Shown here piece by piece: positions 1-19,220 of a stretch of 48,255 nt of DNA. Each line of letters begins with the position of its first letter. Within the stretch, counting starts at the first letter, position 1. The position numbers and the translations under genes were made by a program. The notes beneath the pieces were generated by a model. The model ran no database searches, was not told the origin of the DNA, and saw only the letters and a list, made by a program, of their open reading frames with translations. This stretch comes from a bacterium (GTDB taxonomy: Bacteria; Tectomicrobia; Entotheonellia; J063; CAVPRW01): contig JBKPCR010000213.1 in NCBI GenBank assembly GCA_046727435.1, positions 1 to 48,255 of the forward strand. Direction: 5' to 3'.

Positions 1-137
1 TTGCGTGGGAGGATACGTTCAATCGGCTGCTTCTTCGTTTTGAACACATGCAGCAACGACACTTTGGCATGAAATGACTGGCGTACACCTTGATCAAGGT
101 GCGGCAATTCTGCGGTGCCTAAAACTCGCAACCAGTT
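1..137 (+). pseudogene. 3' end of an IS5-family DDE transposase with an internal stop, plus probable right end of the element
   Basis: Frame from nt 3 reads AWEDTFNRLLLRFEHMQQRHFGMK*LAYTLIKVRQFCGA*, matching the IS5-family C-terminal pattern (FAW..KF.RL..RFE...). Contains an in-frame TGA. Truncated by the window start. Confidence 0.7.
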
Positions 138-139
138 CC

Positions 140-1391: not shown

Positions 1392-1789
1392 GCGATGGCT
1401 GTGAGGACACACACACATGATCGATCACGGCCTGACAGATCAGGGGGCCCATCGCCAGGCGTCAATCGCACGCTGGTGCGCGTTTGGCCGGGCTCATCGA
1501 TCCGAGAGTGGCGAACATGCCCTCGCCCCCACCGGTCGAATGGCCCTGCCCGTGCAACCCATGCGCTGCCGGTCGCGGCACGTGGGGACTGACGAATGGC
1601 GGTCCAGCGTCTCACGGGTCGTGACTCGGAGGGCCCATGGGGGTCTTTCGGCTCTGACGCATAAAAGCCTGAGCCATAACATCCCCTCTATGCTACTATG
1701 CGGCAAAATTTCAGCATATACCCCCGTGACCGGGATCATAGCTCGACACCCACCGTCGAGGTCTGGGGAAGGATATACGTCACAGGTGA

Positions 1790-1813
1790 TGTCTATATAA
1801 TCAAGCGTCCGGC
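1790..1813 (+). other. Possible attI / first-cassette junction
   Basis: AT-rich TCTATATAAT, 5-bp spacer, then GTCCGGC (1807-1813). This is one mismatch from GTTCGGC, the complement of the first cassette's R'' GCCGAAC. Confidence 0.4.
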
Positions 1814-1855
1814 TCCGCACCACCGAAAGGAAGCCAGAAATCAGGAGACGAGTAC

Positions 1856-2092
1856 ATGGGCGAACGGATTACCATTGACCCACAAGTGTGTCACGGGCAA
1901 GCCTGTATTCGGGGTACTCGCATTCCGGTGCATCTCATCCTCCGCATGCTCGCCCATGGGGATACCATCGAGGACCTGCTCCAAGAATATCCCTCATTGA
2001 CACGAGCGGATATCCTTGCCTGCCTCGACTATGCCGCCTCACTGGCAGAGGAGCAGGTGACGCCGCTTGAAGCCTTGTCAGGCGACGCATGA
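1856..2092 (+). CDS. DUF433 antitoxin (VapB45-like)
   Basis: RITIDPQVCHGQACIRGTRIPV...EYPSLTRADILACLDYAA signature. AGGAG RBS. ATGA overlap with the next gene. Confidence 0.92.
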   Translation: MGERITIDPQVCHGQACIRGTRIPVHLILRMLAHGDTIEDLLQEYPSLTRADILACLDYAASLAEEQVTPLEALSGDA

Positions 2093-2448
2093 AGATCCTG
2101 GTTGATGAGCATATCCCGTTAATGACGGTACAGGCACTTCGTTTGCTGAACCATGACGTCCGTGATATTCGCGGCACCCCAGATGAGGGGATACAAGATG
2201 ACGCGCTGTGGATGATGGCTCAGCGGGAAGAGCGCCTGTTGATTACCACCGACAGAGGGTTCAGCCAATATCGCACAGCACGGCATTATGGAATCCTGGT
2301 CATCCGACTTCGACGGCCGAATCGACACAGGATTCACCAACGCATCATGCAGGCGGTGACACAGTTTGCCGAAGGGGACTGGCCTGGGTTGCTGGTCGTT
2401 ATGCGGGATGTCGCGCAGAGCACCTGGCGTGCAAGGGAGCAACCCTGA
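2089..2448 (+). CDS. DUF5615 PIN-like toxin (VapC45-like)
   Basis: MKILVDEHIP...DDALW...ERLLITTDRGF motifs. Translationally coupled to the DUF433 gene. Confidence 0.9.
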   Translation: MKILVDEHIPLMTVQALRLLNHDVRDIRGTPDEGIQDDALWMMAQREERLLITTDRGFSQYRTARHYGILVIRLRRPNRHRIHQRIMQAVTQFAEGDWPGLLVVMRDVAQSTWRAREQP

Positions 2449-2532
2449 GCCGAACCAGGCTGCTGCACCTGCCGCGGCGGCCGTCAAGCCTTTGGCTTGC
2501 CGTCCCCCGCGCAGGTGAGCGCCGCATTCGGC
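2449..2532 (+). repeat. attC site 1 (integron cassette recombination site)
   Basis: Begins right after the toxin stop. R'' GCCGAAC, L'' GCTGCACCTG, L' CAGGTGAGC, R' ATTCGGC (degenerate GTTCGGC). 84-bp imperfect hairpin. Confidence 0.75.
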
Positions 2533-2639
2533 ATTTCGTGGCCGTGGCCGATCGAGGTTGTCGGCCTGTAAGCCATTCTACCTGATTGCATTGTCGCACA
2601 CACGATATGTGTGATCCGTCACGGAAAGGACACTTGAGC

Positions 2640-3404
2640 ATGGCCCATGCACCCTATCGCATCTACGCCGTTCGCTACGCCCACCGCACGTGCACCACCT
2701 CCGAGTGCTTCTACGGCGACTACCACGCGGCGCCCATGGCCATGGACTACTTTGTCTGGGCCCTCACCAACGGCACCGAGACGGTCGTGGTGGACCTGGG
2801 ATTCACGGAAGCGGTGGGCACACGGCGCGGTCGCCAGTTCCTGCGCTGCCCCGGCAAGGGCCTGGCCGAGCTCGGCATTGACTGCACCTCGGTGCAGCAC
2901 GTCATCCTGAGTCACTTCCACTACGACCACGTGGGCAACTACGCGCTCTTCCCCAACGCGACCTTCTACGTGCAGGACGCCGAGATGGCGTTCTACACCG
3001 GCCGCCACGCCTCCCTGGGGGGTTTCCGCCACTCGATCGAGGTGGACGACGTCTGCGCGCTCGTGCGGCTCAACTATGAGGGCCGACTCGCCTTCGTAGA
3101 TGGCTCGCGCGAGATCGTGCCCGGCATCGCCGTGCATCATGTGGGGGGCCACACGGCGGGGATGCAGATCGTCATGGTGGCCCATGCACGCGGCCGAGCG
3201 GTGGTGGCTTCCGACGCGTCCCACTATTACCGCAACTTCGCTGAGCGCATCCCGTTCAACACCCTGCACGACCTGCCGCGCATGTACGCGGCATTCGCGA
3301 AGATCCGGGAGCTGGCCTCGTCGGAGGACCTGGTGCTGCCCGGGCACGACCCTCTGGTGTTCGAGCGGCTCACGAAGGTAGGCGACGGGATCGTGGAGCT
3401 GTAG
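2640..3404 (+). CDS. N-acyl-homoserine lactonase-like metallo-beta-lactamase-fold hydrolase
   Basis: HFHYDH zinc motif, GGHTAG, ASDASH and PGHD motifs. AAAGGA RBS before ATG 2640. Confidence 0.85.
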   Translation: MAHAPYRIYAVRYAHRTCTTSECFYGDYHAAPMAMDYFVWALTNGTETVVVDLGFTEAVGTRRGRQFLRCPGKGLAELGIDCTSVQHVILSHFHYDHVGNYALFPNATFYVQDAEMAFYTGRHASLGGFRHSIEVDDVCALVRLNYEGRLAFVDGSREIVPGIAVHHVGGHTAGMQIVMVAHARGRAVVASDASHYYRNFAERIPFNTLHDLPRMYAAFAKIRELASSEDLVLPGHDPLVFERLTKVGDGIVEL

Positions 3405-3545
3405 CCCAGGCACTCACGCGTGCAGCCCGAATCGACACGTGCGTGACCGCGCTGTCGCCCGGAGGGAACGTCGCACGGGTACGCCGTGCCTCCGGCCGTG
3501 GTGGTCAATGGTGATGCTCACATCCGTGATGCTTTGCCGGCAGCC

Positions 3546-3641
3546 GACGAACCCGGCGCTCGAGCGGAGCGCTCAACAGTGCCGCTGTTAGGTTCCCGCC
3601 GCGCGTCGCGCGCCGGCGCCCGCTCAGCTTTAACGTTCGGC
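3546..3641 (+). repeat. attC site 2
   Basis: R'' GACGAAC, L'' GCTCGAGCGG, L' CCGCTCAGC, R' GTTCGGC. 96 bp with canonical attC arm pattern. Confidence 0.8.
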
Positions 3642-3701
3642 TTCCTCTTTCCACATCCTGTTGTTGAAGGCGGCTGTTTGCACAGAAAGGATGGCACGAC
3701 A

Positions 3702-4770
3702 ATGCGCTATCTGCAGTTTGGCGTCACGCTGTACGATGTGGCCAGGGCCACCCCTGGATTCACACTGATTGTGCCGTATTTCCGCCGCGAGGCTTACCTG
3801 ATCGGCATGCACGGGGAGGTGCCGCACCAGTGGACCAACCTCCCGTTGCCTCATGGTACGTACGCCTATGTGCTCAAGAACGGGAATCTTCTGTGGGCCG
3901 GCCGGACCGCCGAGGGCTGTCCGCTCCAGGCCGGCAAAGGCGGGCTGCTGCGCGAATACGACTGGGACGGCCACGTCCTGTGGGAATACCAGGATGACAA
4001 CCAGCATCATGATTTCCGCCGCTGCGAGACTGGCAACACCCTTTACCTCGGCTGGAGGCCATGCGCCCGGAGGCCGCTGCACGCGTGCAGGGCGGGCAGC
4101 CGGGTACCGAGCACGAGGGAGTGATGTATGGCGATTACGTGCGCGAGATTGATGCGCGCGGCACCACGGTTTGGGAGTGGCACGCACAAGACGACCTGGA
4201 CATCGAGCGCTATCCCCTGAACCCCTTGGTCCACCGCGATGAGTTCGCACACGCCAATGCGTGCTGTCCGCTGCCCAGCGGGGATGTCCTGTTGAGCTTC
4301 CGGCGGATCTCAACCATCATGATCCTCGACCGCCACACGCGCAAGCCGCGCTGGGAGCAGCGCGACGACACCTGGGGCATGCAGCATGACTGCGAGATGC
4401 TGGCCAACGGGCATATCACCTTCTTCGCCAACGGGCACAACACGGGACAGAATCCGTTCTCGCGGGTGATCGAGCTCGACCCCGGCACGCGCCAGACGGT
4501 GTGGGCGTACCAGGGCCACCCGCCGTGGACGTTCTTCAGCCCGCACATCAGCGGCGCCCAGCGCCTCGCCTCGGGCCATACGCTGATCTGCGAGGGTCAG
4601 TGGGGCGCGTGTTTGAGGTCACGCCGGCAGGCGAGATCGTCTGGGAATACATCAACCCGCATCATGGGGAGCAGCGTCCGGGCGTCCTGGCCAACTCGCT
4701 CTTCCGCGCCTACCGCTACGCCGCTGATTCGCCGGAAATCCGCGGGCGCCTGGGCTCGCTCGGCGTCTGA
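3702..4770 (+). pseudogene. Arylsulfotransferase (ASST)-like beta-propeller, two frameshifts
   Basis: QHHDF, HANA, QHD, SGAQRLASGHTLICEG and FEVTPAGEIVWEY motifs are spread over three frames. Breaks lie at ~4055 (GGCTGGAGG) and ~4605 (TGGGGCGC), and each is repaired by one extra G. Confidence 0.82.
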
Positions 4771-4823
4771 AATCGGAGCGGCGATCCGCGCGAGGTCACC
4801 AATCCGACCCGGATAGGAAGGGT

Positions 4824-4911
4824 GCCGAACATTGGCCAGCAGTCGATGCCTGCCAACCGTCGCTCATCCCTCGCTGCGGCTGCCAGACGCGGCTGAAGCC
4901 CAGCGTTTGGC
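4824..4911 (+). repeat. attC site 3
   Basis: R'' GCCGAAC, L'' CAGCAGTCGA, L' CGGCTGAAG, R' GTTTGGC. 88-bp imperfect hairpin. The next gene's RBS and ATG follow within 27 bp. Confidence 0.78.
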
Positions 4912-4937
4912 TGTTGGGTCTGAAGGAGGAAACGTGA

Positions 4938-5501
4938 ATGAACCATCAACCCATGGTAATTGATGACACCTGGTACCGTCGACTGCCAGCCGCTAAGGAA
5001 CGGATCGCAGCTGGCGGTATTGTCCTACGACAGGAGAACCAGCGCGTGTATGTCGCCCTCGCACGGGAACTCGCCCTTGTACGAGAGGCAGATGTCCCTC
5101 CATTTGTCCTGCCAAAGGGCGAGGTTGAACCAGGCGAAACGCTCGAAGCGGCAGCACGACGAGAAATTCGCGAGGAAGTTGGTCTCTCTGACCTGCAGTT
5201 GAGGAGCAAGCTCGGCGTATTGGAGCGCCTGAGTTACGACAAAATCTATTGGACGCAGACCCATTATTTTCTCTTTACGACGGCCCAAAAAGAGGGGATA
5301 CCGACCGACACCCAGCACCATGACGCGGTGTGGTGGTTTCCCCTTGACGGCCTCCCAGCCATGCTCTGGCCGGAACAACGGCGGTTGATCGACACCCATC
5401 GAGACATGCTCGCCACCGTCTGGCCTGCCCCACAGTGGTATGATGGCACCTCGACGCCTCAACTGGGCGAATCCACCCAGTCCGCGAGGGCACTGCCATG
5501 A
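4938..5501 (+). CDS. NUDIX hydrolase
   Basis: Nudix box GEVEPGETLEAAARREIREEVG. AAGGAGG RBS. Confidence 0.9.
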   Translation: MNHQPMVIDDTWYRRLPAAKERIAAGGIVLRQENQRVYVALARELALVREADVPPFVLPKGEVEPGETLEAAARREIREEVGLSDLQLRSKLGVLERLSYDKIYWTQTHYFLFTTAQKEGIPTDTQHHDAVWWFPLDGLPAMLWPEQRRLIDTHRDMLATVWPAPQWYDGTSTPQLGESTQSARALP

Positions 5502-6379
5502 CCGACATGGATCGGCCCCCATTCCTCAGACGACTCAGCGGGTGTTCACCCCTCCACTGGCCCTGGCGTGAGAAAAGGCCACCAGGGCGCACCCATTACC
5601 GACGGGTATGGTCGGCGCTCTTGGCCTGTGGCTTGCTCGTGGCGTCCATGGGGTGGACGTCTGAGAATGACCGCTTCACGGTGGAGCCCGATCGGCCTGA
5701 CATCAGTAACAGCACACACGCCGTCCCCGTGGGCGCGCTCCAGGTCGAGCTCGGGCTCGAATACGCGCGGTTCCGTAACGGCACCACTGAGCGAAGACTC
5801 GCCCTACAAACCACCCTGCGCACCGGCCTCACCGACCGCCTCGAAGTCCGGCTCGACAGCGAGCCCTTGGTCCGGGTGCAGGAAGACTCCGACGACGTGG
5901 GCCTGGGCGACCTCGCCCTCGGCGTGAAGGCGCGCGTCTTCGAGCCTGGAGAAGGCCAGCGGTGGCCCACCCTCGGGCTGCAGCCGTTTGTGAAGATCCC
6001 CACGGCACGAACGCCCGTCGGCTCAGGACGTCTGGACGGCGGGTTCCTCGTCCTCGCCGACCAGGACCTGCCGGGGGAGCTGCAACTGACCGTCAACGCC
6101 GGGCTCGTCGTGCTCGGGCAGCCTCACGGGGCCTTGCTCCAGGGCCTCACAGCCGCGTCGCTCTCCCGCGAGTTCTCGGACCGGCTCTCGCCCTTCCTCG
6201 AGCTGTTCTTCGCCTCGCGCGAGGAGCGGGATGGGCATGACACCGTCGGCCTCGACGTGGGGGCCTTCTACCGGGTGACCCGACGGATGGCCGTTGATGC
6301 GGCGGCGGAGATGACGCTCAACCGCCACCGCCCGGACTATGCGCTGCGCACTGGGGTCAGCTGGCTCATAGGGCGATAA
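5498..6379 (+). CDS. Outer-membrane beta-barrel 'transporter' (Phenol_MetA_deg-like)
   Basis: DRPD..NSTHAVPVGALQVELG, GLGDLALGVK and alternating amphipathic strands, with a near-terminal aromatic residue. Start uncertain. Confidence 0.7.
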   Translation: MTDMDRPPFLRRLSGCSPLHWPWREKRPPGRTHYRRVWSALLACGLLVASMGWTSENDRFTVEPDRPDISNSTHAVPVGALQVELGLEYARFRNGTTERRLALQTTLRTGLTDRLEVRLDSEPLVRVQEDSDDVGLGDLALGVKARVFEPGEGQRWPTLGLQPFVKIPTARTPVGSGRLDGGFLVLADQDLPGELQLTVNAGLVVLGQPHGALLQGLTAASLSREFSDRLSPFLELFFASREERDGHDTVGLDVGAFYRVTRRMAVDAAAEMTLNRHRPDYALRTGVSWLIGR

Positions 6380-6393
6380 GGGGAGATGCCGAC

Positions 6394-7722
6394 ATGCCGG
6401 CCATCGGGTTTGAGCTCTTCGCGATTCTGCTCTTGGTCCTCGCCAATGGCGTCTTTGCCATGGCGGAGATCGCGGTGGTGTCGGCACGCAGAGCCCGCCT
6501 GCAGATGTGGGCCGAGCAGGGGAACCCTCGGGCGCGCACGGCCTTGGAGCTGGCTGAGCACCCCGGTGAGTTTCTCTCGACCGTGCAGATTGGCATCACC
6601 CTCGTGGGCATCCTGGCGGGGGCCTTCGGCGGGGTGCGGCTCGCCGCGCCCCTGGCCGACGCGTTGCGTCCCCTGCCGGGCATCGGCCCGTATAGTGAGA
6701 CGCTCAGCCTGGGCCTCGTGGTGATGGGAATTGCCTATATATCGCTCATCATGGAGGAATTGGTGCCGAAGCAGCTCGCCCTCACGAGCCCCGAACGCCT
6801 CGCCGTGGCGCTGGCCGGTCCGATGCGGTTGGTCTCCCGCCTGGCGTCTCCGGCGGTGCGACTCCTCAGCCGCTCAACGGCGGCGGTGCTGCGGCTGTTC
6901 CGGGTCCGTCCCATCCCGGAGCCGCCGGTGACGGAGGGGGAGATTCGGCTCCTGATGCAGCAAGGGGCACAAGCCGGCGTGTTTGAGGCGGCCGAGCACG
7001 AGATGGTCCAAAGTGTCTTTCGCTTGGGGGACCGGCGCATCGGGGCGCTGATGACGCCGCGAACAGCCGTCGTGTGGCTGGACCTGGACGACCCGCCGGA
7101 GATACTTCACCGTATGGTGGTAGAAACCATACATGCGTGGCTCCCGGTCGCCCGAGGGGATTTGGATCAGCTTCTGGGCGTCGCCCGGGCCAAAGACCTG
7201 TTGGTCCCTCTGCTCAGCGGCCAGCCGGATGCGCTCGAGACATGCGTGCACCAGCCAGTCATTGTTCCCGAAAGCCTCCCAGCGTTGAGGGTGTTGGACA
7301 GGTTTCGGCAGGGAGGCATCCACCTGGCGCTCGTCGTCGATGAATACGGCGGCATTCAGGGGTTGGTGACCCCTATCGACCTCCTGGAGGCACTCGTGGG
7401 GGACATCCCTGAGGCGGGTATGCCGGCCGAGCCCTCCGTGGTGCGCCGCGAGGACGGCTCGTGGTTGGTCGACGGGATGCTGCCCATTGACGAGTTTAAA
7501 GAGCGCATAGCGCTCGGGCCGCTGCCCAGGGAGGGCATGGGTGCGTATCAGACGGTGAGCGGCTTCGTGATGCAGCAGCTCGGGCGGGTCCCCTCGACCA
7601 CCGACCATTTTTCGTGGGGCGGGTTTCGTTTCGAGGTCGTCGATATGGACGGCCACCGTGTCGATAAAGTCCTGGTCATGCCCCTGCCGGCGGAGGACAC
7701 GCCCGAGCAGGCAGGAAGCTGA
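6394..7722 (+). CDS. Hemolysin-family CNNM(DUF21)-CBS-CorC/HlyC Mg2+/Co2+ transport protein
   Basis: NGVFAMAEIAVVSAR, FLSTVQIGITLV, MTPR, VVDEYGG and RFEVVDMDGHRVDKV motifs. Confidence 0.93.
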   Translation: MPAIGFELFAILLLVLANGVFAMAEIAVVSARRARLQMWAEQGNPRARTALELAEHPGEFLSTVQIGITLVGILAGAFGGVRLAAPLADALRPLPGIGPYSETLSLGLVVMGIAYISLIMEELVPKQLALTSPERLAVALAGPMRLVSRLASPAVRLLSRSTAAVLRLFRVRPIPEPPVTEGEIRLLMQQGAQAGVFEAAEHEMVQSVFRLGDRRIGALMTPRTAVVWLDLDDPPEILHRMVVETIHAWLPVARGDLDQLLGVARAKDLLVPLLSGQPDALETCVHQPVIVPESLPALRVLDRFRQGGIHLALVVDEYGGIQGLVTPIDLLEALVGDIPEAGMPAEPSVVRREDGSWLVDGMLPIDEFKERIALGPLPREGMGAYQTVSGFVMQQLGRVPSTTDHFSWGGFRFEVVDMDGHRVDKVLVMPLPAEDTPEQAGS

Positions 7723-7842
7723 ACGCGGGCCACACAGTTCGACTCGCTGGCGGCATCATCCCTTGCCTGCCAAGGTGTTCTGCCTCATCACACCAACATG
7801 ACGACACCACTGTCTCCTGTCATCGTTCATGCCATTCCCCTA

Positions 7843-8175
7843 TCACATCTTTTGCTCCGGACGAGATAAGGCAGCCGGCACGTTCACCGTTAACGTGACG
7901 TCACCTCTGGTCCCTGTGTGGCTCCCAGGGCCTCGATTCGCCAACCTGTGCGCCAGGGCGACGACGTCGTGGGCGTGAACTAAGGTATCGACAGCACGGC
8001 TCAGGATGTCCTGAAGGGCTTGCGCATCCTCCCCCGATAGGCAGGCCGCAATCGTGGCCAGCCGTCCTTCTTTGACATTCGCGTCGACGACCTGAGTCAA
8101 TCGGAGAATCACGTCGATTGTGTCGCTGAGTGAAGACGGGGTGGTCACTTTCGAACGTTTCGGTTTGAATTTCAT
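7843..8175 (-). CDS. Hypothetical protein
   Basis: GGAGG RBS before ATG. Protein-like helical composition. No recognised motif. Confidence 0.5.
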   Translation of the reverse strand: MKFKPKRSKVTTPSSLSDTIDVILRLTQVVDANVKEGRLATIAACLSGEDAQALQDILSRAVDTLVHAHDVVALAHRLANRGPGSHTGTRGDVTLTVNVPAALSRPEQKM

Positions 8176-8444
8176 CGTGGCAATCCTCCGCTATCCGCGA
8201 GGGGTTAGCTCCCGTGCCGGATGCTCCGCCCCTGGGACACTCATGTAGCCCACCTCACGTCTATCCATTGAGACAACTCTCCTCATCGGGGCCATGCCGG
8301 GGGCACTGTCAACCACACGAGTGTCAAGTGCCCACGTGTGAGATGGCCGTCGTACCAGCATCTGTGGCGCCGGTGGATCACCCCTCCGGACTGATCCAAG
8401 CCTCCCATGGACAACCCGGAAGGTTGTCCAGCAGGCGCGGCACA

Positions 8445-9422
8445 TCACGGCTGCACCAGGGCCAAGAACGCTGGATCCGAGCGAAGGCCCTGGAAATCGT
8501 CATCCTGTTGCGCCTCAGACGCCAGCGCAGGGTTTAACGCAATGGCCTTGCCTAACCATTGCACGGCGTGTGCCCCATCGCCCAGGTGGGCATAGGCGGC
8601 GGCGAGGTTGTAACAGGCGTCGCTGAACTGCGGGTTGAGCCGGATGGCCTCCGTGAACGGCTCAAGGGCCCCCTGGTAGTCCTGGCGCCGGAGCAACAGG
8701 GTGCCAAGGTTATAATGGGCAGTGGCATACGAAGGGTTCAGGGCGATCGCCCGCTGAAAGGCGGCCACCGCCCGCTCGTACTCTCTCAGCCCTGCATGGG
8801 CAAGCCCCAGGTTCAAGAAGGTCGTCGGATCCTTGGGGTCAAGCATCCTCGCCTGTGTGAGGACCTCAACGGCCGAACCGAACCGCTGTTGTTTCACCAA
8901 GAGGTTCCCAAGCCGCACGTAGGAGGCTTGGTGGCCGGGGTCAAGGGCGAGCGCTCGCTTGAAGAGCGCCTCGGCCTCGTCGAAGCGACCGTCGTTGAGC
9001 TGGATCACCCCGAGGTTGTAATACGCCCTCGTGAGCCGGGGATCGAGCCGAACCGCTTCGACAAACGCCCTGCGGCCCTCCTCGGTCCTCCCAAGCTGCA
9101 GGAACACGACGCCCAGATTCAGATGGGCCGGGGCAAAATCGGGCTTAAGGGCGACGGCTTTCCCCAAGTGCTCCTCGGCCTCGTGCAGGTTCCCGACCTG
9201 GAAAGACAGCAGGCCGGTCTCATATTGGAGCTGAAAATCATGAGGCCGGAGCCCGGCGGCTTGATGGTAAAGATCCGCCGCGACATGCAGCTGCCCCGCG
9301 TTCCTCGACCGCTCCGCTAAGGCCACGAGCCTCTCAGCATTCTCGGCCGAGCTGCAGGCCAACGGGCCGCAGAGCACGAGGAGCCAGAGATACCGTTGCC
9401 ACCGCTGAGGCTTTCCCGTCAT
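8445..9422 (-). CDS. Tetratricopeptide-repeat lipoprotein
   Basis: Signal peptide with lipobox PLAC. Repeated AHLNLG/AYYNLG TPR units. C-terminal DDDFQGLRSDPAF cap. Confidence 0.88.
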   Translation of the reverse strand: MTGKPQRWQRYLWLLVLCGPLACSSAENAERLVALAERSRNAGQLHVAADLYHQAAGLRPHDFQLQYETGLLSFQVGNLHEAEEHLGKAVALKPDFAPAHLNLGVVFLQLGRTEEGRRAFVEAVRLDPRLTRAYYNLGVIQLNDGRFDEAEALFKRALALDPGHQASYVRLGNLLVKQQRFGSAVEVLTQARMLDPKDPTTFLNLGLAHAGLREYERAVAAFQRAIALNPSYATAHYNLGTLLLRRQDYQGALEPFTEAIRLNPQFSDACYNLAAAYAHLGDGAHAVQWLGKAIALNPALASEAQQDDDFQGLRSDPAFLALVQP

Positions 9423-9466
9423 CAGGCATCTCCGAGATGTGTCCAGTGGTTCCGGGTGACTGCCCG

Positions 9467-10807
9467 TCAGTAGAGGTACGGCGATAAGGCGGCCCAGGCC
9501 TGCATGACATCCTGGAGGGCATCCAGGTAATCGAGCCGCACCCTGGTCCAGTCCCTGCGAATGGGCAGGAGTTCGGCGAGGCTGATATCGCCGCTGGCAT
9601 AGCGGGTCTCGGCGCTGCGCAAGACGTTCTCGGCGCGTGGTAGAACCTCGTCGCGCAGCAGCGTGGCGGCGGCAGTGGCGGTGGCCAGTGTCCGGTAGGC
9701 CGTCTGCAGCTCCTGCGCTAACGCGTTCCGCGCGGAACGGGCTCGGGCTTCGGCCGCCACAAAATCGGCCCTGGCCTCACGTATACTGCCCTGATAGCGG
9801 TTGAACAGGGGGATCGGCAGCCGCAGGCCGACATCGACCGTGTTCTCCACATCACCGACCCGTCGGTACAACAGCTCGACGCTCACATCGGGGATCCGTT
9901 GGCTGTCAGCCAGATCGATGCGGGCCCGCTGCACCGCGATGTCCGCGTCCGCGGCAGCGATAAATGGGCTTTGCTCGAGACGTGTGGCCAGCGCTTCCAG
10001 GGTCGGGAGTGCCAGCGGCCCCTCTAACGCGCCCTCCAGGGATTCCACGTGTAACGTCGGATCGCCGATCGCGGTGACCAGGGCCTCGACGGCCTGTGCA
10101 CGCCCGGACGTGGCTTGCTCCAGCGCCAAGCGGGCTCGACCCCACTCCACCTCAGCTTGGCCAACTTCCGCAGGAATGGCATCTCCAGCGGCCAGGCGTG
10201 CCTTGGCGACGGCTACCCCGTTCTCGGCGATTTGGACATCTTCAGCCCGGGCCTGGATGACGCGTTGCCAGTACAGTACGGTAGCAAAGGCGCTCTGCAC
10301 ACGCCTGCGGATCTCCAGGCGCTTCACCTCCAACTCGAGCCCCAGACGGTCCCGATCGAGCGTTTCCACACGGCGGGCGACGGCGAGTCGCTGGCCTAAA
10401 GGAGCGGGTTGACTGACGCCGACGAGATACTCTGCCCGCTCGAGGGTCTGCCCGCTGACGGGGACCGACTCGATCCGGCTCACGAGCTCAGGGTTTGGGA
10501 AGAGCCCGGCCTGCAGGGCTCTTCCTTCGGCACTCTCGACCTGGGCCTGGGCAGTGGCCAAATCAGGATGAACACGTTCAGCGAGCTCTAGAGCCTGCGG
10601 CAGCGTCAAGCGCTCGATGCTCCGCTCATGGCGCGGCGAGGCAGACGGCGACATGAGACTGGCCGCCGCCACGGGAGTGGCCATGACATGAGGCTCCGTC
10701 ACAGGCAGGGCGCGACGAGCTTGGGGAAGAAGCTCCGGTGCGGGCGTTAGGGCGCAGCCGGCCATGAGAGCAGGCAGCGTCGCGACCCACCACAGCAACG
10801 TTTTCAT
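9467..10807 (-). CDS. czcC: CzcC/TolC-family outer-membrane efflux factor
   Basis: Lipobox MAGC. QAGLFPNPEL and LPIPLFNRYQG motifs. Coupled to the RND gene. Confidence 0.85.
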   Translation of the reverse strand: MKTLLWWVATLPALMAGCALTPAPELLPQARRALPVTEPHVMATPVAAASLMSPSASPRHERSIERLTLPQALELAERVHPDLATAQAQVESAEGRALQAGLFPNPELVSRIESVPVSGQTLERAEYLVGVSQPAPLGQRLAVARRVETLDRDRLGLELEVKRLEIRRRVQSAFATVLYWQRVIQARAEDVQIAENGVAVAKARLAAGDAIPAEVGQAEVEWGRARLALEQATSGRAQAVEALVTAIGDPTLHVESLEGALEGPLALPTLEALATRLEQSPFIAAADADIAVQRARIDLADSQRIPDVSVELLYRRVGDVENTVDVGLRLPIPLFNRYQGSIREARADFVAAEARARSARNALAQELQTAYRTLATATAAATLLRDEVLPRAENVLRSAETRYASGDISLAELLPIRRDWTRVRLDYLDALQDVMQAWAALSPYLY

Positions 10808-13800
10808 CGGGGACCCCCTTCCTGAGCCATCTGCACCGGCCGGCCGAAACGCAGGTAGAGCGCTGGAACGATCAGCATATTGAGCAACATCGAGGTCAGC
10901 AGTCCGAACAGGATGACGATGGCCATCGGCGTTTGAATCTCGTTGCCGGGCTTCTCGCCGCTGATGGCCAAGGGGATCAGCGCTAACCCCGCCGCCAGGG
11001 CCGTCATCAGGATGGGGGCCAGCCGTTCCATCGCGCCGCGGAAGACGGCTTCGCGGAAATCGGTCACCCCTTCGTGTGCCTGCAAATGGCGAATGTGCGA
11101 TACGAGCATGATGCCATTGCGGGTCGCGATGCCAAACACCGTAATGAACCCGATCAACGACGCCACCGAGAGCACGCCGCCGGAGATGAAGACGCCGGCA
11201 ATGCCGCCAATGAGCGCTAGCGGCAGGTTCACCATCACGAGCACGGCATCGCGCGCGGAGCCGAAGGCAAGATGCAGGAGGAGGGCGATCCCGAGGACGA
11301 CAGCGATGCCGAGCACGCCGAGAAGACGCCCGGCCTCTTCGGCGCTCTCAAATTGCCCGCCATAAGCCACAGCATAGCCAGGCTTTTCGGCAATGATGGG
11401 ATCGACGCGTTGCTGCATATCCTTCACCACCGAGGCCACGTCGCGTCCTGCCACATTGCACATCACGACGATTTTGCGCTCCACCTGTTCGCGGCTGATG
11501 GTATTGGGCCCAGTGGTCTTGCCGACCTGCGTGAGGACTTGCAGGGGGATCTTCGCGCCATCGGGCGTGTCCACCAGGAGGTGGCCGAGCGTCTCCGGGT
11601 TCCATCCCTCAGCTTCCGCCTGGCGCACCACCAGATCGAAGGCGTATCGCCCTTCCAGGATACGCGACACGGTGACGCCTTGCAGCGCGGCTTCGAGGGT
11701 GTGGGCTACATCTTCGACCATCACCCCATACCGCGCCATGGCTTGGCGGTCGAACCGCGCGCCGAGAATCGGCACGTCGATCTGTTGCTCGACCGACACG
11801 TCCACGGCGCCGGGAACGGTGGCTACGACCTGGCGGACTTTTTCGCCAAGGGCGCGCAGGGTGTAGAGGTCCTCGCCGAAAATTTTGACGGCGATATTCG
11901 CCCGTGTGCCCGACAGCATGTGATCGATCCGGTGCGAAATCGGCTGCCCGATCGTGATGTTCGTACCGGGGATGAGCGAGAAGTCCCGACGCAGGGCATT
12001 GAGGAACTCCGTTTTGCTGCGATCTCGCATGACAAGCGACACATCGAGTTCTGCTGCTTCGACGCCTTGCGCGTGCTCGTCGAGCTCGGCGCGGCCAGTC
12101 CGACGAGCGACAGAGACCACCTCCGGATGGGCCAGTAAGGTTTTCTCGACCACGCGCCCGAGGGCATCGGATTCGGGCAAGGAGGTGCCTGGGAGCGTGA
12201 CGGCACTGATGGTCAGGGAGCCTTCGTTGAAGTCCGGCAGGAAGGCGCGGCCCAGGAAGCTGGAGGCGATCACCGCGACGCCAAGCAGGAGGATGGCCGG
12301 GATCGTGACCAGCCATGGAAACTGCAGCGAAGGGTTCAGAATGGGGGCATAGCCCGATTTCAAGACGCGGACGAGTGGCGGCTCGCGGCCCGTTCGGACG
12401 GCTTTGCTACCAGGGAGCAGAAGGTAACAGAGCACGGGGGTGACGGTCACGGCCACGGCAAGCGAGGCGAGAATCGAGACCACATAGGCGGTGCCGAGCG
12501 GCCTGAGGAGTCTCCCTTCCACCCCTGCTAGGAAGAACAGGGGGAGGAACACGAGGATGATAATCAGCGTCGCGAAGACGATCGACGACTGGATCTCGAC
12601 GCTCGCCTCATAGACCACCTGGAACACAGACCGGCGCTTGTCTGCGGGGAGCATGACGTTTTCGCGCAGCCGCCGAAAGACGTTTTCCACGTCGATCACG
12701 GCGTCGTCGACCAACGCCCCGATGGCAATGGCCATCCCGCCCAGCGTCATCGTGTTGATCGTCGCACCGAAGGCCTGCAAGGTGAGCACCGCCGTTAACA
12801 GCGACAGTGGGATCGCGGTCAGCGTGATGAAGGCGGCCCTGAGGTTGGCGAGAAAGAGGAAGACGATGGCGATGACCAAGATCCCGCCGTCACGCAGGGC
12901 ATGAAAGACGTTCTCGATGGCGATTTCGATAAAGTCCGCCTGACGAAAGACCTGTTGAATCCGCATGCCTTCGGGGAATTTCCCCTGCAGCTCAGCGAGG
13001 ACCGCCTCTAAGGTGCGCGTCAAGGTGAGCGTGTTCGCTCCGGGTTGCTTCTGGACGCCAAGGATGACCGCTGGCTGCGCATTGATGGATCCCTCGCCTC
13101 GTTTGGGGGCGGCATCGATGCGCACGGCCCCGAGGTCCGACACGCGGATGGGAATGCCGTCTACCGCCGCCACAACCGCGGCGCCGATGTCCTCGGGCGT
13201 GCGCATGCGGCCAAGGCCGGTGACCAGGTATTCCGAGCCGCCGGCGATCAAGAAGCCGGCGGAGACATTGGTGTTCGAGGCGGTGAGGGCTTGGGTGACC
13301 TGTTTGAGGGACACGCCATAGGCGCGCAGTTTGGACGGCGCCAGGATGACCTGATACTGTTTCTCCCCGCCGCCGATCGGTGTGACCTGGGACACCCCTG
13401 GCACGGAGAGGAGCCGACGGCGGAGTGTGGTTTCGGCGATGGTGCGCAGCTCGATTGGACTGTGCCGATCAGACGTCAACGCCAGGAAGAGGATCTCCCC
13501 CATGATGGACGAGATGGGGGCCAGGATGGGTCGCTCGACCCCTGGCGGGAGATCTGCCGCGATCAGGGACACCTTTTCACTGACGATCTGACGGGCCGCG
13601 TAAATGTCCATGCCCCAGTCGAACTCTACCCAGACCACGGAAATGCCCACTGCGGTCGACGAGCGCACCCGCCTCACGCTCGATGCCCCGTTCACCGCTG
13701 TTTCGATCGGGAAGGTGACCTGGCTTTCCACCTCCACCGGAGCCATGCCATGGGCCTCGGTGATGACGGTCACGGTAGGGGCCGTGAGGTCTGGAAACAC

Positions 13801-13911
13801 ATCGACCGGCATCCGACGCGCGGTGTATACGCCGATCGCAGTCAGCACAAGTGCCAGCGAGATGATCACCGCCCGGTTGCGGAGAGACCAGCGAATCACG
13901 GAATCGATCAT
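10804..13911 (-). CDS. czcA: Heavy-metal efflux RND permease (CzcA/CusA/NrsA family)
   Basis: 1035 aa. VDVFPDL, LGGMAIAIGALVDDAVIDVEN, RRTGRAE and ERLAPILMTA motifs. Metal specificity cannot be determined from the sequence. Confidence 0.93.
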   Translation of the reverse strand: MIDSVIRWSLRNRAVIISLALVLTAIGVYTARRMPVDVFPDLTAPTVTVITEAHGMAPVEVESQVTFPIETAVNGASSVRRVRSSTAVGISVVWVEFDWGMDIYAARQIVSEKVSLIAADLPPGVERPILAPISSIMGEILFLALTSDRHSPIELRTIAETTLRRRLLSVPGVSQVTPIGGGEKQYQVILAPSKLRAYGVSLKQVTQALTASNTNVSAGFLIAGGSEYLVTGLGRMRTPEDIGAAVVAAVDGIPIRVSDLGAVRIDAAPKRGEGSINAQPAVILGVQKQPGANTLTLTRTLEAVLAELQGKFPEGMRIQQVFRQADFIEIAIENVFHALRDGGILVIAIVFLFLANLRAAFITLTAIPLSLLTAVLTLQAFGATINTMTLGGMAIAIGALVDDAVIDVENVFRRLRENVMLPADKRRSVFQVVYEASVEIQSSIVFATLIIILVFLPLFFLAGVEGRLLRPLGTAYVVSILASLAVAVTVTPVLCYLLLPGSKAVRTGREPPLVRVLKSGYAPILNPSLQFPWLVTIPAILLLGVAVIASSFLGRAFLPDFNEGSLTISAVTLPGTSLPESDALGRVVEKTLLAHPEVVSVARRTGRAELDEHAQGVEAAELDVSLVMRDRSKTEFLNALRRDFSLIPGTNITIGQPISHRIDHMLSGTRANIAVKIFGEDLYTLRALGEKVRQVVATVPGAVDVSVEQQIDVPILGARFDRQAMARYGVMVEDVAHTLEAALQGVTVSRILEGRYAFDLVVRQAEAEGWNPETLGHLLVDTPDGAKIPLQVLTQVGKTTGPNTISREQVERKIVVMCNVAGRDVASVVKDMQQRVDPIIAEKPGYAVAYGGQFESAEEAGRLLGVLGIAVVLGIALLLHLAFGSARDAVLVMVNLPLALIGGIAGVFISGGVLSVASLIGFITVFGIATRNGIMLVSHIRHLQAHEGVTDFREAVFRGAMERLAPILMTALAAGLALIPLAISGEKPGNEIQTPMAIVILFGLLTSMLLNMLIVPALYLRFGRPVQMAQEGGPR

Positions 13912-13923
13912 GGCTCTTTCCTC

Positions 13924-15591
13924 TCAATGGGCATGCCCATGCGCTGGAATCGCCGCCGACACTGACGCCAGGCGAATGGCATAGGCACCTTTGGTGACCA
14001 CGCGCTCGCCCTCGGCAAGCCCCGAGAGGACCTGGACGAAGGCGCCGTCGCGAATGCCCAGCGTCAGGTCGCGCTTGGCAAAGGTCTCACCGGCAACCTG
14101 GACGAAGGCGACTGCCCTGCCGTCTTCGTCGACCAACGCAGAGACAGGCACGACCAACGCCTCTTCAACCTGCGCCGTCTCCACATACACATTCAGCGCC
14201 ATGCCGATGCGCAGGCGCCCATCAGGATTGGGAACCTCATACACCAGGGGAAGGGTGCGGGTTTTGGGATCGACGGTAGTCCCGAGGTAGACGAGACGAC
14301 CTCCGCCGTTGCTGAGAATGGGCGCAAAGGTGCCTGGCGCGTCCGAGGTTTCGTAGGTCGCTCCGCGGGACGACCCGAGGCGGCTGAGGTCCCCCTCGGG
14401 GATCTGGGCTTCGATCAGGACACCCTCGGGGTTGAGAATGGTGAACACGGCCCCGTCCGAGGGCACATGCTCACCGACGGTCGCGCTGACGGCGATGATG
14501 ACACCAGCGATGGGGGCCTTCAGTTCGACCGCGGGCATCCCATGGCTCAGGTCGACCGATCGCGGGCGGTCCGCGAGCTGCTTCTTGGCTCTCTCATAGG
14601 TCTTTCGCAGCGCCTCAGCTGCGGTCAGGTCGGCCTCGGCCTTGCGCTGATCAAACTCTGCTTCCTCCAGTTCTCGTGCCGACTTGGCGTTCTGTTCGCG
14701 CAGTGCGCGCATGCGGCGCAAGACCTGCTCGGCTTGATTGAAGGCCACGCGCGCTCTGATGGCGTCGGCCTCGGCGGCAGCGGCTTTCACAGTCAATTCC
14801 ACGTCAAGGGCCTGGAGCTGCTGCTGGCTGCTAAGGAACGTCACCAGATCGGAACCTGCCAGGTGCGGTTGCACCATCGCGAGCACCTGCCCGGCCTGCA
14901 CGCGAGATCCGAGGGACGGCAGGGAGGCGCCAGGTGGAGACATGAGATGCCCGGCGATTGGCGGCGTCACGGCGGCGCGATGGCCTGGTCGAACGGACAC
15001 GACACCGGCGAGTCGGAGCCGTTCAATCACCTGTCGCCTGTGCACTGCCTCGGTTTTCGTAGATAATTTCCATTGCTGCTCTTTGAGAAAGCTGATGCCT
15101 TCGGGTGCGGCAGGGTCTGGGGCCATCGCCATCTCCTCGCGCGTGGCGAAGACGGTCAAGGGGGGCAACTCGACGATGTACTCCTGGCCCGCGGAGGGAA
15201 TGCGGAGAGACACGATCCACTCGCCAGGCCTCGGAAAGGTGAGCTCTGGGATATAAATGCCATCGCGTGCGGGGGTGGGCTCGACGTGGGTGATCGGCGC
15301 CTCGGAATCACGGCGGAGGATGAACGTCAGGGGCCCCTCCCGCCGGGGTTCGAGGGTCGTCAGATCGGTGACATGCGTGATGAATTTGGTCGGGGTATTG
15401 ACCACGATCAACCGGTATTCGAGGAAAATCTCAAATCGGTCACTCCAGACTGTCACCTGGGCCGTTTTCTCTTCCGCTTCCGTTTCCGCGCCCTCTTGGG
15501 AGGTCTCTAGGCGGCCACACGCGGCAACTAGGAGCGCGCAGAGTATGATCCAGGCCCGGAGATTCACGATGCTGATAGGGGTGAGGCTCAC
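13924..15591 (-). CDS. czcB: RND periplasmic adaptor (CzcB-like) lipoprotein
   Basis: LKAPIAG, VDPKTRT, LRIGM and GLAEGERVV motifs. C-terminal HGHAH. Lipobox VAAC. Confidence 0.9.
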   Translation of the reverse strand: MSLTPISIVNLRAWIILCALLVAACGRLETSQEGAETEAEEKTAQVTVWSDRFEIFLEYRLIVVNTPTKFITHVTDLTTLEPRREGPLTFILRRDSEAPITHVEPTPARDGIYIPELTFPRPGEWIVSLRIPSAGQEYIVELPPLTVFATREEMAMAPDPAAPEGISFLKEQQWKLSTKTEAVHRRQVIERLRLAGVVSVRPGHRAAVTPPIAGHLMSPPGASLPSLGSRVQAGQVLAMVQPHLAGSDLVTFLSSQQQLQALDVELTVKAAAAEADAIRARVAFNQAEQVLRRMRALREQNAKSARELEEAEFDQRKAEADLTAAEALRKTYERAKKQLADRPRSVDLSHGMPAVELKAPIAGVIIAVSATVGEHVPSDGAVFTILNPEGVLIEAQIPEGDLSRLGSSRGATYETSDAPGTFAPILSNGGGRLVYLGTTVDPKTRTLPLVYEVPNPDGRLRIGMALNVYVETAQVEEALVVPVSALVDEDGRAVAFVQVAGETFAKRDLTLGIRDGAFVQVLSGLAEGERVVTKGAYAIRLASVSAAIPAHGHAH

Positions 15592-15756
15592 CGCTGTGTT
15601 CTCCTCTGCTCTTGGGCTCTATCCCGGTGACCACACGTGGTGTTTGGGATGGGCGCTCTTCATTGGGGCATCAAGAGATGCGACTAACCGGCAATCGACG
15701 CCCACCACGCGCGAGGGACGGCTGGTGGTGTGCCGATCAGCGAAAGGGGCGAGCGC

Positions 15757-16146
15757 CTACGAGAGGAGAGAACAGTGTTGGAGGAAGAGTGGGGCAGGCG
15801 GGGGAGGATGTTCGAGGATTTGACGATACACAGGAGTGCTACCTACGAGAGGCTCTGTAGCCGCCCACGGCAAGCCATGAATGGCCACCAGGGCCATCGA
15901 GTGCGGTGGGGCGTCTGAGCCTGCTGTGGTGGTATACCACTCGAAGTGACAGTGGGTGTCCGCGTCATGATGAGAGGGATCAAGTACGCCTGATGGCTCA
16001 TGCGTGTTCTCATCACCGACGACAGGAAAGGCGCCTAGATGGGGGATGAAGACAGAACCCCGGTGTCCGCCGCCCCTGTGGTCAACGACGACGTGGGTGG
16101 AGGTCAAAAGGAAAGCCATCATCACCACAAGGCTCGGAACGCGCAT
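15757..16146 (-). CDS. Small His-rich exported protein heading the czc operon (CzcI/DUF2946-like)
   Basis: Hydrophobic N-terminus, HHDADTHCH, C-terminal HPPPPAPLFLQHCSLLS. First gene of the operon. Confidence 0.65.
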   Translation of the reverse strand: MRVPSLVVMMAFLLTSTHVVVDHRGGGHRGSVFIPHLGAFPVVGDENTHEPSGVLDPSHHDADTHCHFEWYTTTAGSDAPPHSMALVAIHGLPWAATEPLVGSTPVYRQILEHPPPPAPLFLQHCSLLS

Positions 16147-16153
16147 AGCATGT

Positions 16154-16183
16154 AGAATAGCCGAGCGATAGTCTGGAAGTCAA
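16154..16183 (-). promoter_or_regulatory. Sigma70-type promoter giving a leaderless transcript
   Basis: TTGACT (16183-16178), 18-bp spacer, TATTCT (16159-16154), then 7 nt to the A of ATG 16146. No SD sequence. Confidence 0.6.
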
Positions 16184-16240
16184 GAATCGGGATGGCCGGG
16201 TAGTGACTCAGTTTGAAATTTCAGGCTTGGCGGACGACAG

Positions 16241-16432
16241 ATGGACGAATAAGCCCGCGCGACTGAGCCAATCCTCTGCGAAATCAAGAATGGCTGGGCA
16301 GTCTTAGGACATGGATGGGCGGTTCATGGACGCACGAAAGAGCAGGCTCTCCAAAAATATCATGAAGCGGAAGCGAAGCACCGTGAGATTGACCAGCGCC
16401 CGTTTTGGCATGAACAGCTTCGACAAGTCTGA
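16241..16432 (+). pseudogene. Small ORF with an early stop, weakly HicB-like
   Basis: MDE*ARATEPILCEIKNGWAVLGHGWAVHGRTKEQALQKYHEAEAKH... The GxTxEQAL motif resembles the HicB N-terminal domain. Confidence 0.3.
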
Positions 16433-16843
16433 GCGAGATATGCTACCCTCATTGGAAGGGATCAGAAATCGATAGGACAAACGAGGTATCCGGGAACCTT
16501 GTCCACGGATGTGAACGGTTTATTCTGCAAATCCCTCAACGCTACTCATGCTCAGCGCCTATGAGCCGAGCCAGATAGCCGCGTGGAGGGAACCACATTG
16601 TAGGATTTGCAGGAAGGCTGTCCTCAGGCGTCTCCCGAATACGCAGGCCGTCTGCGTGAGCTATCGGCGGCATCGCTGTGATGACGCGTATCCGGCCATC
16701 TCTTGGGTCATCATGGGATACGCGCTGTGGCGTTGGCATGGAATATGCTGCTCAAGGGAGTTATATCTGTACTCGTTCAACTCTGGCCGTATCGCAGTGA
16801 TGAAAGCCCGGTAGGCATCCGGGCCACGTGAAAGGGCGGAATT

Positions 16844-17320
16844 ATGATCACCAAACATGTCGTCTGGCGGTGTCTGTGCATGGTGCTGTTGCTGGTGTCG
16901 ATGGTCGCAACCCCCGCCGTGGCCGACCCGGGGAAAGATGAGGCGCACGGCAAAGAGGGAAAGGGGAAACACGAGAAGCACCGGTCGAAGCCGAAAGACT
17001 GGGAGTCTCACGGGTATGACGGCTACTTCCACGAGCATGGGTATACCACGCTCGGCATTCCCCCAGGTCATCTGCCCCCGCCCGGCAAATGCCGCCTCTG
17101 GTATCCCGACCGGCCGCCGGGTCATCAACCGCCTCCAGAGAGCTGTGGGCGCCTGCGCGCGCACGCGCCTGTTGGCGGTTGGCTCATCCACCGTCCCAAG
17201 CACGAACCTCACTACGTGGATGTCTCCGTGTATGATGCGTATCAGCCCGGCATCGTCATCACCATCGGCATCTTTGACGTGGATACCGGCGCCTTCTTGC
17301 GCCATCTCAGACCACGCTAA
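16844..17320 (+). CDS. Secreted His/Lys-rich, Pro-rich hypothetical protein (passenger)
   Basis: Signal peptide ending AVA. HGKEGKGKHEKH. IPPGHLPPPGKCRLWYPDRPPGHQPPPESC motif. Confidence 0.8.
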   Translation: MITKHVVWRCLCMVLLLVSMVATPAVADPGKDEAHGKEGKGKHEKHRSKPKDWESHGYDGYFHEHGYTTLGIPPGHLPPPGKCRLWYPDRPPGHQPPPESCGRLRAHAPVGGWLIHRPKHEPHYVDVSVYDAYQPGIVITIGIFDVDTGAFLRHLRPR

Positions 17321-17714
17321 CATCTGGCTGGGCACTGAACGAAGCATGACTGACGCACTTCCTCCATACCAGCGTGAGCGCGGCGACCCCCATACCCACG
17401 CGTGCCACTGCGAGCAACTCAGTAACCAGCCCTACATAGCCATGCGAATGTAGGAAGTCCCTCACCGCCTTATTGCACCAACCCATGCATGTGAGCTAAG
17501 ATAAATTTCAAACTGAGTCACTACCGATGGCCGCATCAACGTTTACCCACCCTCCTCAGTGCCCACGAGAGTTTCGAGGACTCGCGGATGAAGGCTTCTC
17601 CGATGGAATTGGAGAAATTTTGTACGCTCGTGTGACCCGCCCCATGTGCGTGAGGTCACATGCGTCCGTGGCTGCCATTCTGCGGCATTGTGTAGCGTCT
17701 GCTGCACGTCTGCT

Positions 17715-17820
17715 GAGGGCCACATAGCGGTGAATTTGGCTGGTGAGATGCGCAAGGTACGGCAGATGTCCGCCACGGTCAGACGTCGATCCCCATAGAG
17801 CGTGTAGGCCATCTGCACCC
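17715..17820 (-). pseudogene. C-terminal HTH remnant of a serine resolvase/invertase
   Basis: VQMAYTLYGDRRLTVADICRTLRISPAK, then IHRYV in a shifted frame, resembling the resolvase HTH ending ISR.TLYRY. Confidence 0.55.
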
Positions 17821-18087
17821 GTGGTTCCTCTGGTTGGATTTGAGGCAGAGTCTCTGTTGCGTGCTTCCCCAGACGGGAGCGACAAACGGTGGTGCCTCGG
17901 CGCACCCAGATCCTCCTGTGGAGAGGCTGGTGGCACGAGCATCACTCGATCTTCTTCATCCATGGCCCGGCACCCAGTATCGCCATGTTCATCGACGGTG
18001 GTGAGCGGAACTCATGACCTACTGTTGGGGAGTTGCTTGTGTAGTCCCGCGAGTCGGCTCGAATGGCAGACAGGCCGTCACCACGCT

Positions 18088-18315
18088 TCAATGCCGAGAT
18101 CGACGCCGGAACAGGGCGTACAATGGGCCGAGCCACACGGCGAGCAATCCCAGATGCTTGATCACCACCAAAATAATCACGCCCGACACGACTGTGGCTG
18201 ATAGGGCCGTATGCGGCAACACGTAGGACAGGATGATTGCGTGACTGGCGATGAGCACGACGACTCCCACCGACAGCCTCAACGGGCGCGTCAGCAGGCG
18301 GCGATGTCCTTTCAT
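18088..18315 (-). CDS. Small membrane protein
   Basis: 75 aa with two hydrophobic segments, directly downstream of the methyltransferase. Confidence 0.55.
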   Translation of the reverse strand: MKGHRRLLTRPLRLSVGVVVLIASHAIILSYVLPHTALSATVVSGVIILVVIKHLGLLAVWLGPLYALFRRRSRH

Positions 18316-18346
18316 GGATTCGATCCTTTGGTGGCAATGGTCGTGA

Positions 18347-19000: not shown

Positions 19001-19074
19001 CCTCCTTGGGTATGGGTACTGTGAGCGAGACCCGCCACGATGCCGGTGGAGCTGAACGCTCCACCCCCATTGAC

Positions 19075-19190
19075 GGACAATCGTATGAAAGTGGACATGT
19101 GTTCATCTTTTAGTATAGGCTTAAAACGCATCGGGTGAAGAACAGCCATGGTCAATGTGTCCGATAGTGGACAACAAACACGTGTTGTTC
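19075..19190. promoter_or_regulatory. Candidate TetR operator half-sites in the divergent intergenic region
   Basis: Repeated GGACA/GAACA and TGTCC/TGTTC half-sites, e.g. GAACA-N13-TGTCC (19140-19162) and GGACA-N12-TGTTC (19169-19190). Confidence 0.4.
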
Positions 19191-19220
19191 GTGATCTCCC
19201 CCTCGGCTTTAGAGGAGGAT

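Follow-up and report, generated by a model that had tools for sequence, protein, structure and literature searches.

The window analyzed here is the whole of contig C213 (JBKPCR010000213.1; 48,255 bp) of a metagenome-assembled genome (MAG) that comprises 555 contigs and 6.72 Mb, with 59.5% G+C and a completeness of 81%. Near its left end lie four gene cassettes in one orientation, three of which carry an attC recombination site; they are preceded by a region homologous to the stretch next to an integron integrase gene (intI) on another contig and, further left, by two insertion sequences (IS). We consider it highly probable that window 1395-~5435 represents the remnant of a chromosomal integron, which consists of an attI region and four co-oriented cassettes, cassettes 1-3 each with its attC site and cassette 4 with its end lost. 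The arrangement of attI followed by cassettes, the complementarity of first cassette bases to the R'' box, the homology breakpoints at cassette boundaries and the lack of intI on the contig are direct observations. A preliminary description, made from the sequence without database searches, had proposed a partly decayed array of three attC sites without an intact integrase, that is, a cluster of attC sites lacking integron-integrase (CALIN).

Cassettes and attC sites of the window

We searched for attC sites with a covariance model, R1, built from 17 full-length attC sites on other contigs of the MAG, the window being excluded. Its structure combines a 20-pair stem predicted by RNAalifold, in which 11 of the 20 pairs show compensatory changes in the 17-site seed alignment, with seven R''/R' pairs added by hand. 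The scan of the window covered both strands with filters off and gave 31 matches at E<=10; R1 E-values are rough because the calibration was short. The sites and the cassettes that they delimit are as follows.

2449-2532, + strand: attC1, 84 bp; R'' GCCGAAC, R' ATTCGGC; R1 22.4 bits, E 1.5e-3
3546-3641, + strand: attC2, 96 bp; R'' GACGAAC, R' GTTCGGC; R1 27.5 bits, E 6e-5
4824-4911, + strand: attC3, 88 bp; R'' GCCGAAC, R' GTTTGGC; R1 67.8 bits, E 6e-16
1808-2526, + strand: cassette 1, DUF433 gene (1856-2092) and DUF5615/PIN-like gene (2089-2448), by Pfam
2527-3635, + strand: cassette 2, metallo-beta-lactamase (MBL)-fold lactonase-like hydrolase gene (2640-3404), Pfam Lactamase_B 43.2 bits
3636-4905, + strand: cassette 3, arylsulfotransferase-like pseudogene (3702-4770) with two frameshifts, by Pfam
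4906-5435, + strand: cassette 4, NUDIX hydrolase gene (open reading frame (ORF) 4938-5501), 3'-truncated and without an attC of its own, by homology

The only three window matches at E<0.01 were attC1-3, each spanning model positions 1-88, and they coincide exactly, on the + strand, with the three same-orientation elements of 84-96 bp in the preliminary description, for which a lack of covariance-model matches would have spoken against an array. The next-best match was the reverse of attC3 (E 0.19) and the remainder reached at most 11.3 bits; a chance origin of the three matches is excluded. All three sites start with G(C/A)CGAAC and end with (G/A)TT(C/T)GGC, and they begin 0, 141, and 53 bp, respectively, after the stop codons of + strand genes. 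A CALIN, as defined by Cury et al. (2016), has a minimum of two attC sites that share a strand and are separated by less than 4 kb; the sites of the window start at 2449, 3546, and 4824, all on +. attC3 belongs fully to the main attC family of the MAG and was matched genome-wide by R1 at E 8.6e-14. Rfam at its gathering thresholds identified no attC-like family in the window, only two cobalamin riboswitches.

The three sites differ in how well their bottom strands fold. The hairpin of attC1 is strong (-38.2 kcal/mol, z -6.7), and its three single-base bulges are confined to the R''-L'' arm; its R', however, begins with ATT. In attC2 the fold keeps the R box paired, and one G and one T bulge out at a distance of 6 bp on the R''-L'' arm, as in the canonical extrahelical pattern of attC structures. 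attC3 has canonical boxes and a weak stem with several mismatches. Across the 17 seed sites, fold energies run from -14.0 to -33.6 kcal/mol, and weak folds are therefore normal in this attC family.

The cassette boundaries agree with integration of circular cassettes. As had been pointed out from the sequence, cassette 3 starts with GTTCGGC (3635-3641), which is fully complementary to GCCGAAC (4824-4830), the R'' of the same cassette, and the ATG of the NUDIX gene (4938) lies 27 bp after the end of attC3 at 4911; both statements hold at the positions checked. Cassette 1 has TCCGGC as its first bases rather than TTCGGC. Independent support comes from a second genome of the same genus (G001; 8.3 Mb, 50 contigs), in which a segment 92% identical to cassette 1 (G001:C22:188585-189255) begins to match at window 1811. 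The same genome contains six near-identical copies of attC1, differing by a few single bases from R'' GCCGAAC to the crossover triplet (search identity 94-96% for five of them), with unrelated flanks on both sides; three of the copies lie in co-oriented arrays with family sites. Among these copies and that of the window, the crossover triplet is GTT in three of seven, ATT in three, and AGT in one.

Cassette 1 encodes a predicted type II toxin-antitoxin pair, based on the Pfam matches of its two genes (DUF433, 96.3 bits against a cut-off of 23.6; DUF5615, 75.8 bits against 23.8), which overlap by 4 bp at 2089-2092. Four of the eight other DUF433 homologues of the MAG also adjoin an attC site on the same strand (C161, C341, C270, and C426). 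The hydrolase of cassette 2 matches acyl-homoserine lactonase models weakly, far under their cut-offs. Two class-level relatives carry homologues (67.7% amino acid identity) as chromosomal genes of the ordinary kind, without adjoining attC; across three class-level relatives no convincing flanking attC was found, with one match at E 0.045.

Cassette 3 is broken into three overlapping ORF pieces in three frames that match Pfam Arylsulfotrans and Arylsulfotran_2, and an intact single-frame homologue in genome G012 aligns to the three pieces in order. Contigs from soil metagenomes (see below) carry one extra G near 4055 and another behind 4601 relative to cassette 3, so both breaks look like single-nucleotide losses in G runs. 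For cassette 4, window 4861-5434 is 78% identical to G001:C44:16721-17276, the homology ending near 5434-5440. The G001 gene lies between two R1 attC matches, which indicates that the NUDIX gene is a cassette too. Cassettes 1-4 are non-resistance genes. The two frameshifts of cassette 3, together with the 3' truncation of NUDIX near 5435, bear out the earlier suggestion of partial decay.

We also compared the window with contigs of four soil metagenome runs that hold parts of the locus, some pieces being identical to it. Soil contigs break away from the window at 2449, at 4912 directly behind attC3, and at 5435 (in two runs). The break at 2449 carries a different upstream cassette end, which matches a G001 flank. 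Further contigs from these runs read through 4912 and 5435 in agreement with the window. No joints, and hence no excision product, were seen in the parts that the four runs cover; neither uncovered parts nor small word shares count as evidence.

The attI region and the missing integrase

Upstream of cassette 1, three further features extend to the left end of the contig.

1395-1807, + strand: attI region (platform remnant), by homology to the intI-proximal stretch of contig C338
142-1389, - strand: IS630-family element, with TA target duplications at 140-141 and 1390-1391
1-138, - strand: terminus (~130 bp) of a second IS, IS481/IS3-like, which runs off the contig end

Window 1395-1808 aligns over 414 bp, at 88.6% identity, with C338 3028-2620, a stretch that stops ~85 bp short of the beginning of an intI pseudogene (3114-4048). 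This pseudogene was matched at 3114-3443 and 3470-4048 by the integron integrase profile TIGR02249 (curated cut-off 265 bits) and has five TGA and one TAG codons inside the match. C338 carries attC sites at 1441-1499 and 294-381 in the orientation that matches the array of the window. The alignment between window and C338 ends with ...TATATAATCAAGCGT (...AAGCGT), after which the window continues with CCGGC and C338 with TAGCC. Because the homology stops at the G/T crossover point and different cassettes lie beyond it, we assign 1395-1808 to an attI region. We place the crossover between 1807 and 1808, and such a junction, with different first cassettes at the two loci, is the signature of an attI site. 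The attI at the head of the array is thus recognized by homology alone.

The sequence TATAAT is conserved at 1796-1801. Window 1655-1833 recurs on C5, C554, and C178. An attI-like fragment on C5 (19823-20003; L012 7824-8004) is 82-92% identical to the attI regions of the window and C338 and sits in a co-oriented array, between attC sites at L012 7119-7217 and 10342-10399; the fragment resembles a second remnant of a platform, lodged within an array.

TIGR02249 at E<=0.001 has no match on C213, in agreement with the preliminary description. A complete integron has intI adjacent to attI and divergent from the array, which here would put it on the left, on the - strand; the IS630 element and the second IS occupy the expected place. 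To the left of attC1, the sequence extends for only ~2.4 kb before the contig terminates within an IS, and a criterion that demands 4 kb free of intI can therefore not be applied. The locus is not a bare CALIN, as the attI homologue at 1395-1808 survives.

The transposase of the IS630 element (NF033545, 183 bits against a cut-off of 100; Pfam DDE_3 and helix-turn-helix (HTH) domains) is encoded by ORFs 173-1123 and 789-1331, and the inverted ends of the element read CTAGTACC(G/C)TGTCTCA. The two ORFs overlap on the - strand, HTH at 789-1331 and DDE at 173-1123, which reflects either a frameshift or programmed frameshifting. As for the second IS, window 11-138 shares 82% identity with the 5' end of an element on C371 (30087-29960); the 419-aa ORF of that element matches the IS481 and IS3 transposase models with scores under the cut-offs, and three copies diverge directly after ...CAACCAGTTC. 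When the IS630 element is removed, ~6 bp separate the terminus of the second IS from the homology of the attI region. A BLAST search with the IS and the intI-proximal stretch of C338 identified no contig in which the far end of the IS is linked to the start of an intI.

Related attC sites, integrases and neighboring genes

An nhmmer search of the MAG with attC3 identified a relative at C289 3584-3669 (E 2.9e-6) and another five with E<0.01; searches with attC1 or attC2 alone found no relative in the same genome. One profile iteration raised the number to 51 matches at E<=1e-3 on 30 contigs, with a typical spacing of ~1 kb, and R1 identified at least 62 attC sites at E<=1e-3 among the 150 scored of 3,719 first-look candidates. 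In all 10 contigs with several nhmmer matches, these lie on one strand. Sites of the attC3 family adjoin intI loci on C338, C273, C289, and C408.

A coding call by codon usage, trained on 467 long ORFs of the MAG and applied to sites outside the window, gave the best-scoring upstream gene the orientation of its attC in 36 of 42 calls (p 3e-6); six more sites gave no call and two were skipped. Upstream of attC3, the call picks the wrong strand because the gene is frameshifted.

Two simpler searches were rejected. An ad hoc pattern of the end motifs had 140 matches in the genome, as compared with ~95 by chance according to a hand estimate, and was too unspecific. Scans for AAC/GTT hairpins missed attC1, since its R' has ATT, and returned palindromic sites without strand assignment.

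Some family sites show peculiarities of their own. Two identical attC copies on C251 (172-259 and 293-380) start 121 bp apart and represent either a tandem duplication or a near-empty cassette. Several of the family sites on C534 (9535-9622), C46 (2424-2505), C408, C499, and C554 end with GCGTTGATATGA; the next cassette therefore starts with TTGATATGA, with an ATG a few bases past the crossover. This way of beginning a cassette recurs and may provide a start codon.

The search for integrases and related attC sites that the preliminary description had called for was thus productive. TIGR02249 gave 71 matches at E<=0.001 in the MAG, with nine loci above 265 bits (C117, C334, C433, C181, C273, C260, C503, C382, and C408). 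Two of the nine are full-length without internal stops (C117 and C433), four have one stop each, and three are partial. In genome G001, 11 integrase loci exceed the cut-off, and its arrays are remote from every intI. Homologues of IntI in named genomes are 60-72% identical and scattered over many phyla. According to surveys of complete genomes, most integron-bearing genomes have a single intI, with ~20-22% having more than one (PMC4889954, PMC9024848). The number of intI loci in the MAG is far above the single intI that is typical of integron-bearing genomes; a search, not exhaustive, found no reports of about ten intI per genome.

Efflux and chromate genes follow the array in the window, and its relation to this "metal island" is one of adjacency only. 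Window 9470-15591, 20081-21244, and 41231-45697 contain a resistance-nodulation-division efflux triad (OEP, AcrB-type, and HlyD-type), a cation diffusion facilitator (CDF)-type cation-efflux gene, and a chromate transporter with ORFs for the N- and C-domains of ChrB. Window 5450-25400 has no more than scattered matches to G001. Two tandem cobalamin riboswitch aptamers (46299-46478 and 46668-46846, + strand; 84.9 and 95 bits) directly precede an OprB-like porin ORF (46811-48253), whose start they overlap and which continues past the contig end.

Origin of the array and its place among integrons

In the mechanism that we propose, each cassette would have entered as a circle, IntI recombining the folded bottom strand of attC with attI between the G and the TT of the triplet; such an insertion would leave the first six bases of a cassette complementary to its own R''. 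A rearrangement near 5435 would have removed the end of cassette 4 including its attC. The terminus of the second IS sits at the edge of the platform remnant, and the IS630 element has inserted between the two. No recombinase is encoded in the array; an intact IntI from elsewhere in the genome (C117 or C433) could still excise its cassettes or reshuffle them in trans. The array is decaying, with two frameshifts in cassette 3, a truncated NUDIX gene, and non-canonical triplets around the toxin-antitoxin cassette (GTC at attI and ATT at attC1). Toxin-antitoxin cassettes stabilize chromosomal integron arrays, and by analogy the pair in cassette 1 probably retains the array through post-segregational killing. 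The GTC and ATT triplets may reduce excision of this cassette, which is speculative because ATT is also present in congeneric copies of attC1.

Several observations weigh against the reading as an integron remnant. The attC calls depend on R1, a family-specific model with hand-added R-box pairs, and not on the attc_4 model of IntegronFinder. On the scale of the genome (window E x ~139), attC1 and attC2 would have E-values of ~0.2 and ~0.009 and neither is significant alone; they carry weight because a strong site lies less than 4 kb away in the same orientation. Sequence relatives of attC2 were found neither in its own genome nor in 40 relatives. As hairpins the elements differ: unlike attC1, attC2 and attC3 fold no better than shuffled sequences (z -0.7 and -0.6, respectively), and the attC-type hairpin of attC3 (-16.8 kcal/mol) lies 2.8 kcal/mol above the minimum free energy fold (-19.6 kcal/mol). 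When orientation was judged crudely, by the longest ORF within 600 bp ahead of each site, the strands agreed in 29 of 48 cases, which is not significant (p 0.19). One soil contig (run X4, record 25), identical to window 1793-1975, diverges at 1793 with 128 unrelated bases upstream, so that its break lies 15 bp before the junction between 1807 and 1808. A sigma-70 promoter scan at attI gave no call and no -35 element was found, for which reason a cassette promoter Pc is a possibility only. Recombination of the array was not observed.

Could the hairpins be REP-like (repetitive extragenic palindromic) or terminator-like repeats unrelated to integrons? The poor folds of two of the three, the lack of a matching Rfam family, and the modest excess of end-motif matches over the hand estimate would suit such repeats. 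The preliminary description had held that random orientation throughout the genome would betray them, and the strands are consistent in every multi-match contig. Moreover, the sites adjoin intI loci, the upstream genes called by codon usage mostly share their strand, and homology breaks at R'' and at the G/TT triplet. A fourth end-motif match on the contig (29771-29889) has no R1 match at E<=10. This explanation is already contradicted and retains next to no probability. A strict CALIN, in which the cassettes were inserted at a secondary site or moved by rearrangement and never had an attI/intI platform of their own here, appears improbable. Cury et al. (2016) name secondary-site insertion and rearrangement among the origins of CALINs, about half of which they place in genomes that encode IntI, and the arrays of G001 are distant from any intI. 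However, the 414 bp directly upstream of cassette 1 are homologous to an intI-proximal region and this homology ends at the crossover, which fits a resident attI and not a secondary site.

A different objection concerns the integrase itself. The locus might be a complete integron that was merely interrupted, the second IS being a simple insertion ~85 bp upstream of an intI that lies just past the left contig end, in which case the missing integrase would be an assembly artefact. This is possible, if doubtful. An IS terminus lies within ~6 bp of the attI homology, at a point ~85 bp from the intI start of C338; the contig ends inside the repeat of the second IS; the IS630 element, with intact TA duplications, is itself a simple insertion; and several intI contigs of the MAG start or end at or near intI. 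On the other hand, BLAST yielded no contig joining the other IS end to the intI start, the only known paralogue of the platform (C338) has a dead intI, and an intI beyond the contig end would still be at least 3.7 kb from attC1. By the definitions of Cury et al. (2016), we describe the locus as a CALIN-like element that arose from IS-associated loss or separation of intI, in which the attI region was unusually kept.

The integron remnant can be compared with three known kinds of system. With CALINs it shares three attC sites ~1.0-1.2 kb apart, the absence of intI from the contig, non-resistance cassettes, and an IS at the array edge, as Cury et al. (2016) propose for IS-mediated origins; unlike them, it keeps a homologue of the attI region. 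It resembles sedentary chromosomal integrons of the Vibrio superintegron type in its genome-wide family of related attC sites, in its toxin-antitoxin and functionally diverse cassettes, and in cassette ORFs that all face in one direction, away from attI/intI, as on C338. It differs from that type in being a short array of four cassettes, one of many small loci in the genome, and in its dissimilar attC sites, attC1 and attC2 having no nhmmer-detectable similarity to attC3. The third system is the paralogous platform on C338, with its 88.6% identical attI, the same crossover position, and family attC cassettes downstream; C338, however, keeps an intI pseudogene and different cassettes, whereas the window has IS elements instead.

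The array is real but ordinary, and it adds a member to the known integron cassette arrays as one more environmental array without resistance genes. It also offers a clean worked example of a CALIN-like origin, with attI recognizable, the IS in place, and both ends of the array mapped to the base. More notable is the multi-integron genus to which it belongs, with two congeneric soil genomes that each have about ten integrase loci, related attC sites by the dozen, and DUF433 toxin-antitoxin cassettes that recur. Tentatively, and at less than even confidence, the window might be one of about ten paralogous platforms that were multiplied within one soil genus, share an attC family (and attI in at least two), were disabled singly by IS, and are anchored by toxin-antitoxin cassettes with mutated triplets; the flanks of the toxin-antitoxin cassette are decayed in the congener as well. 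If this is true, the genus would represent a natural system for the duplication of platforms and for cassette traffic between integrons within one cell.

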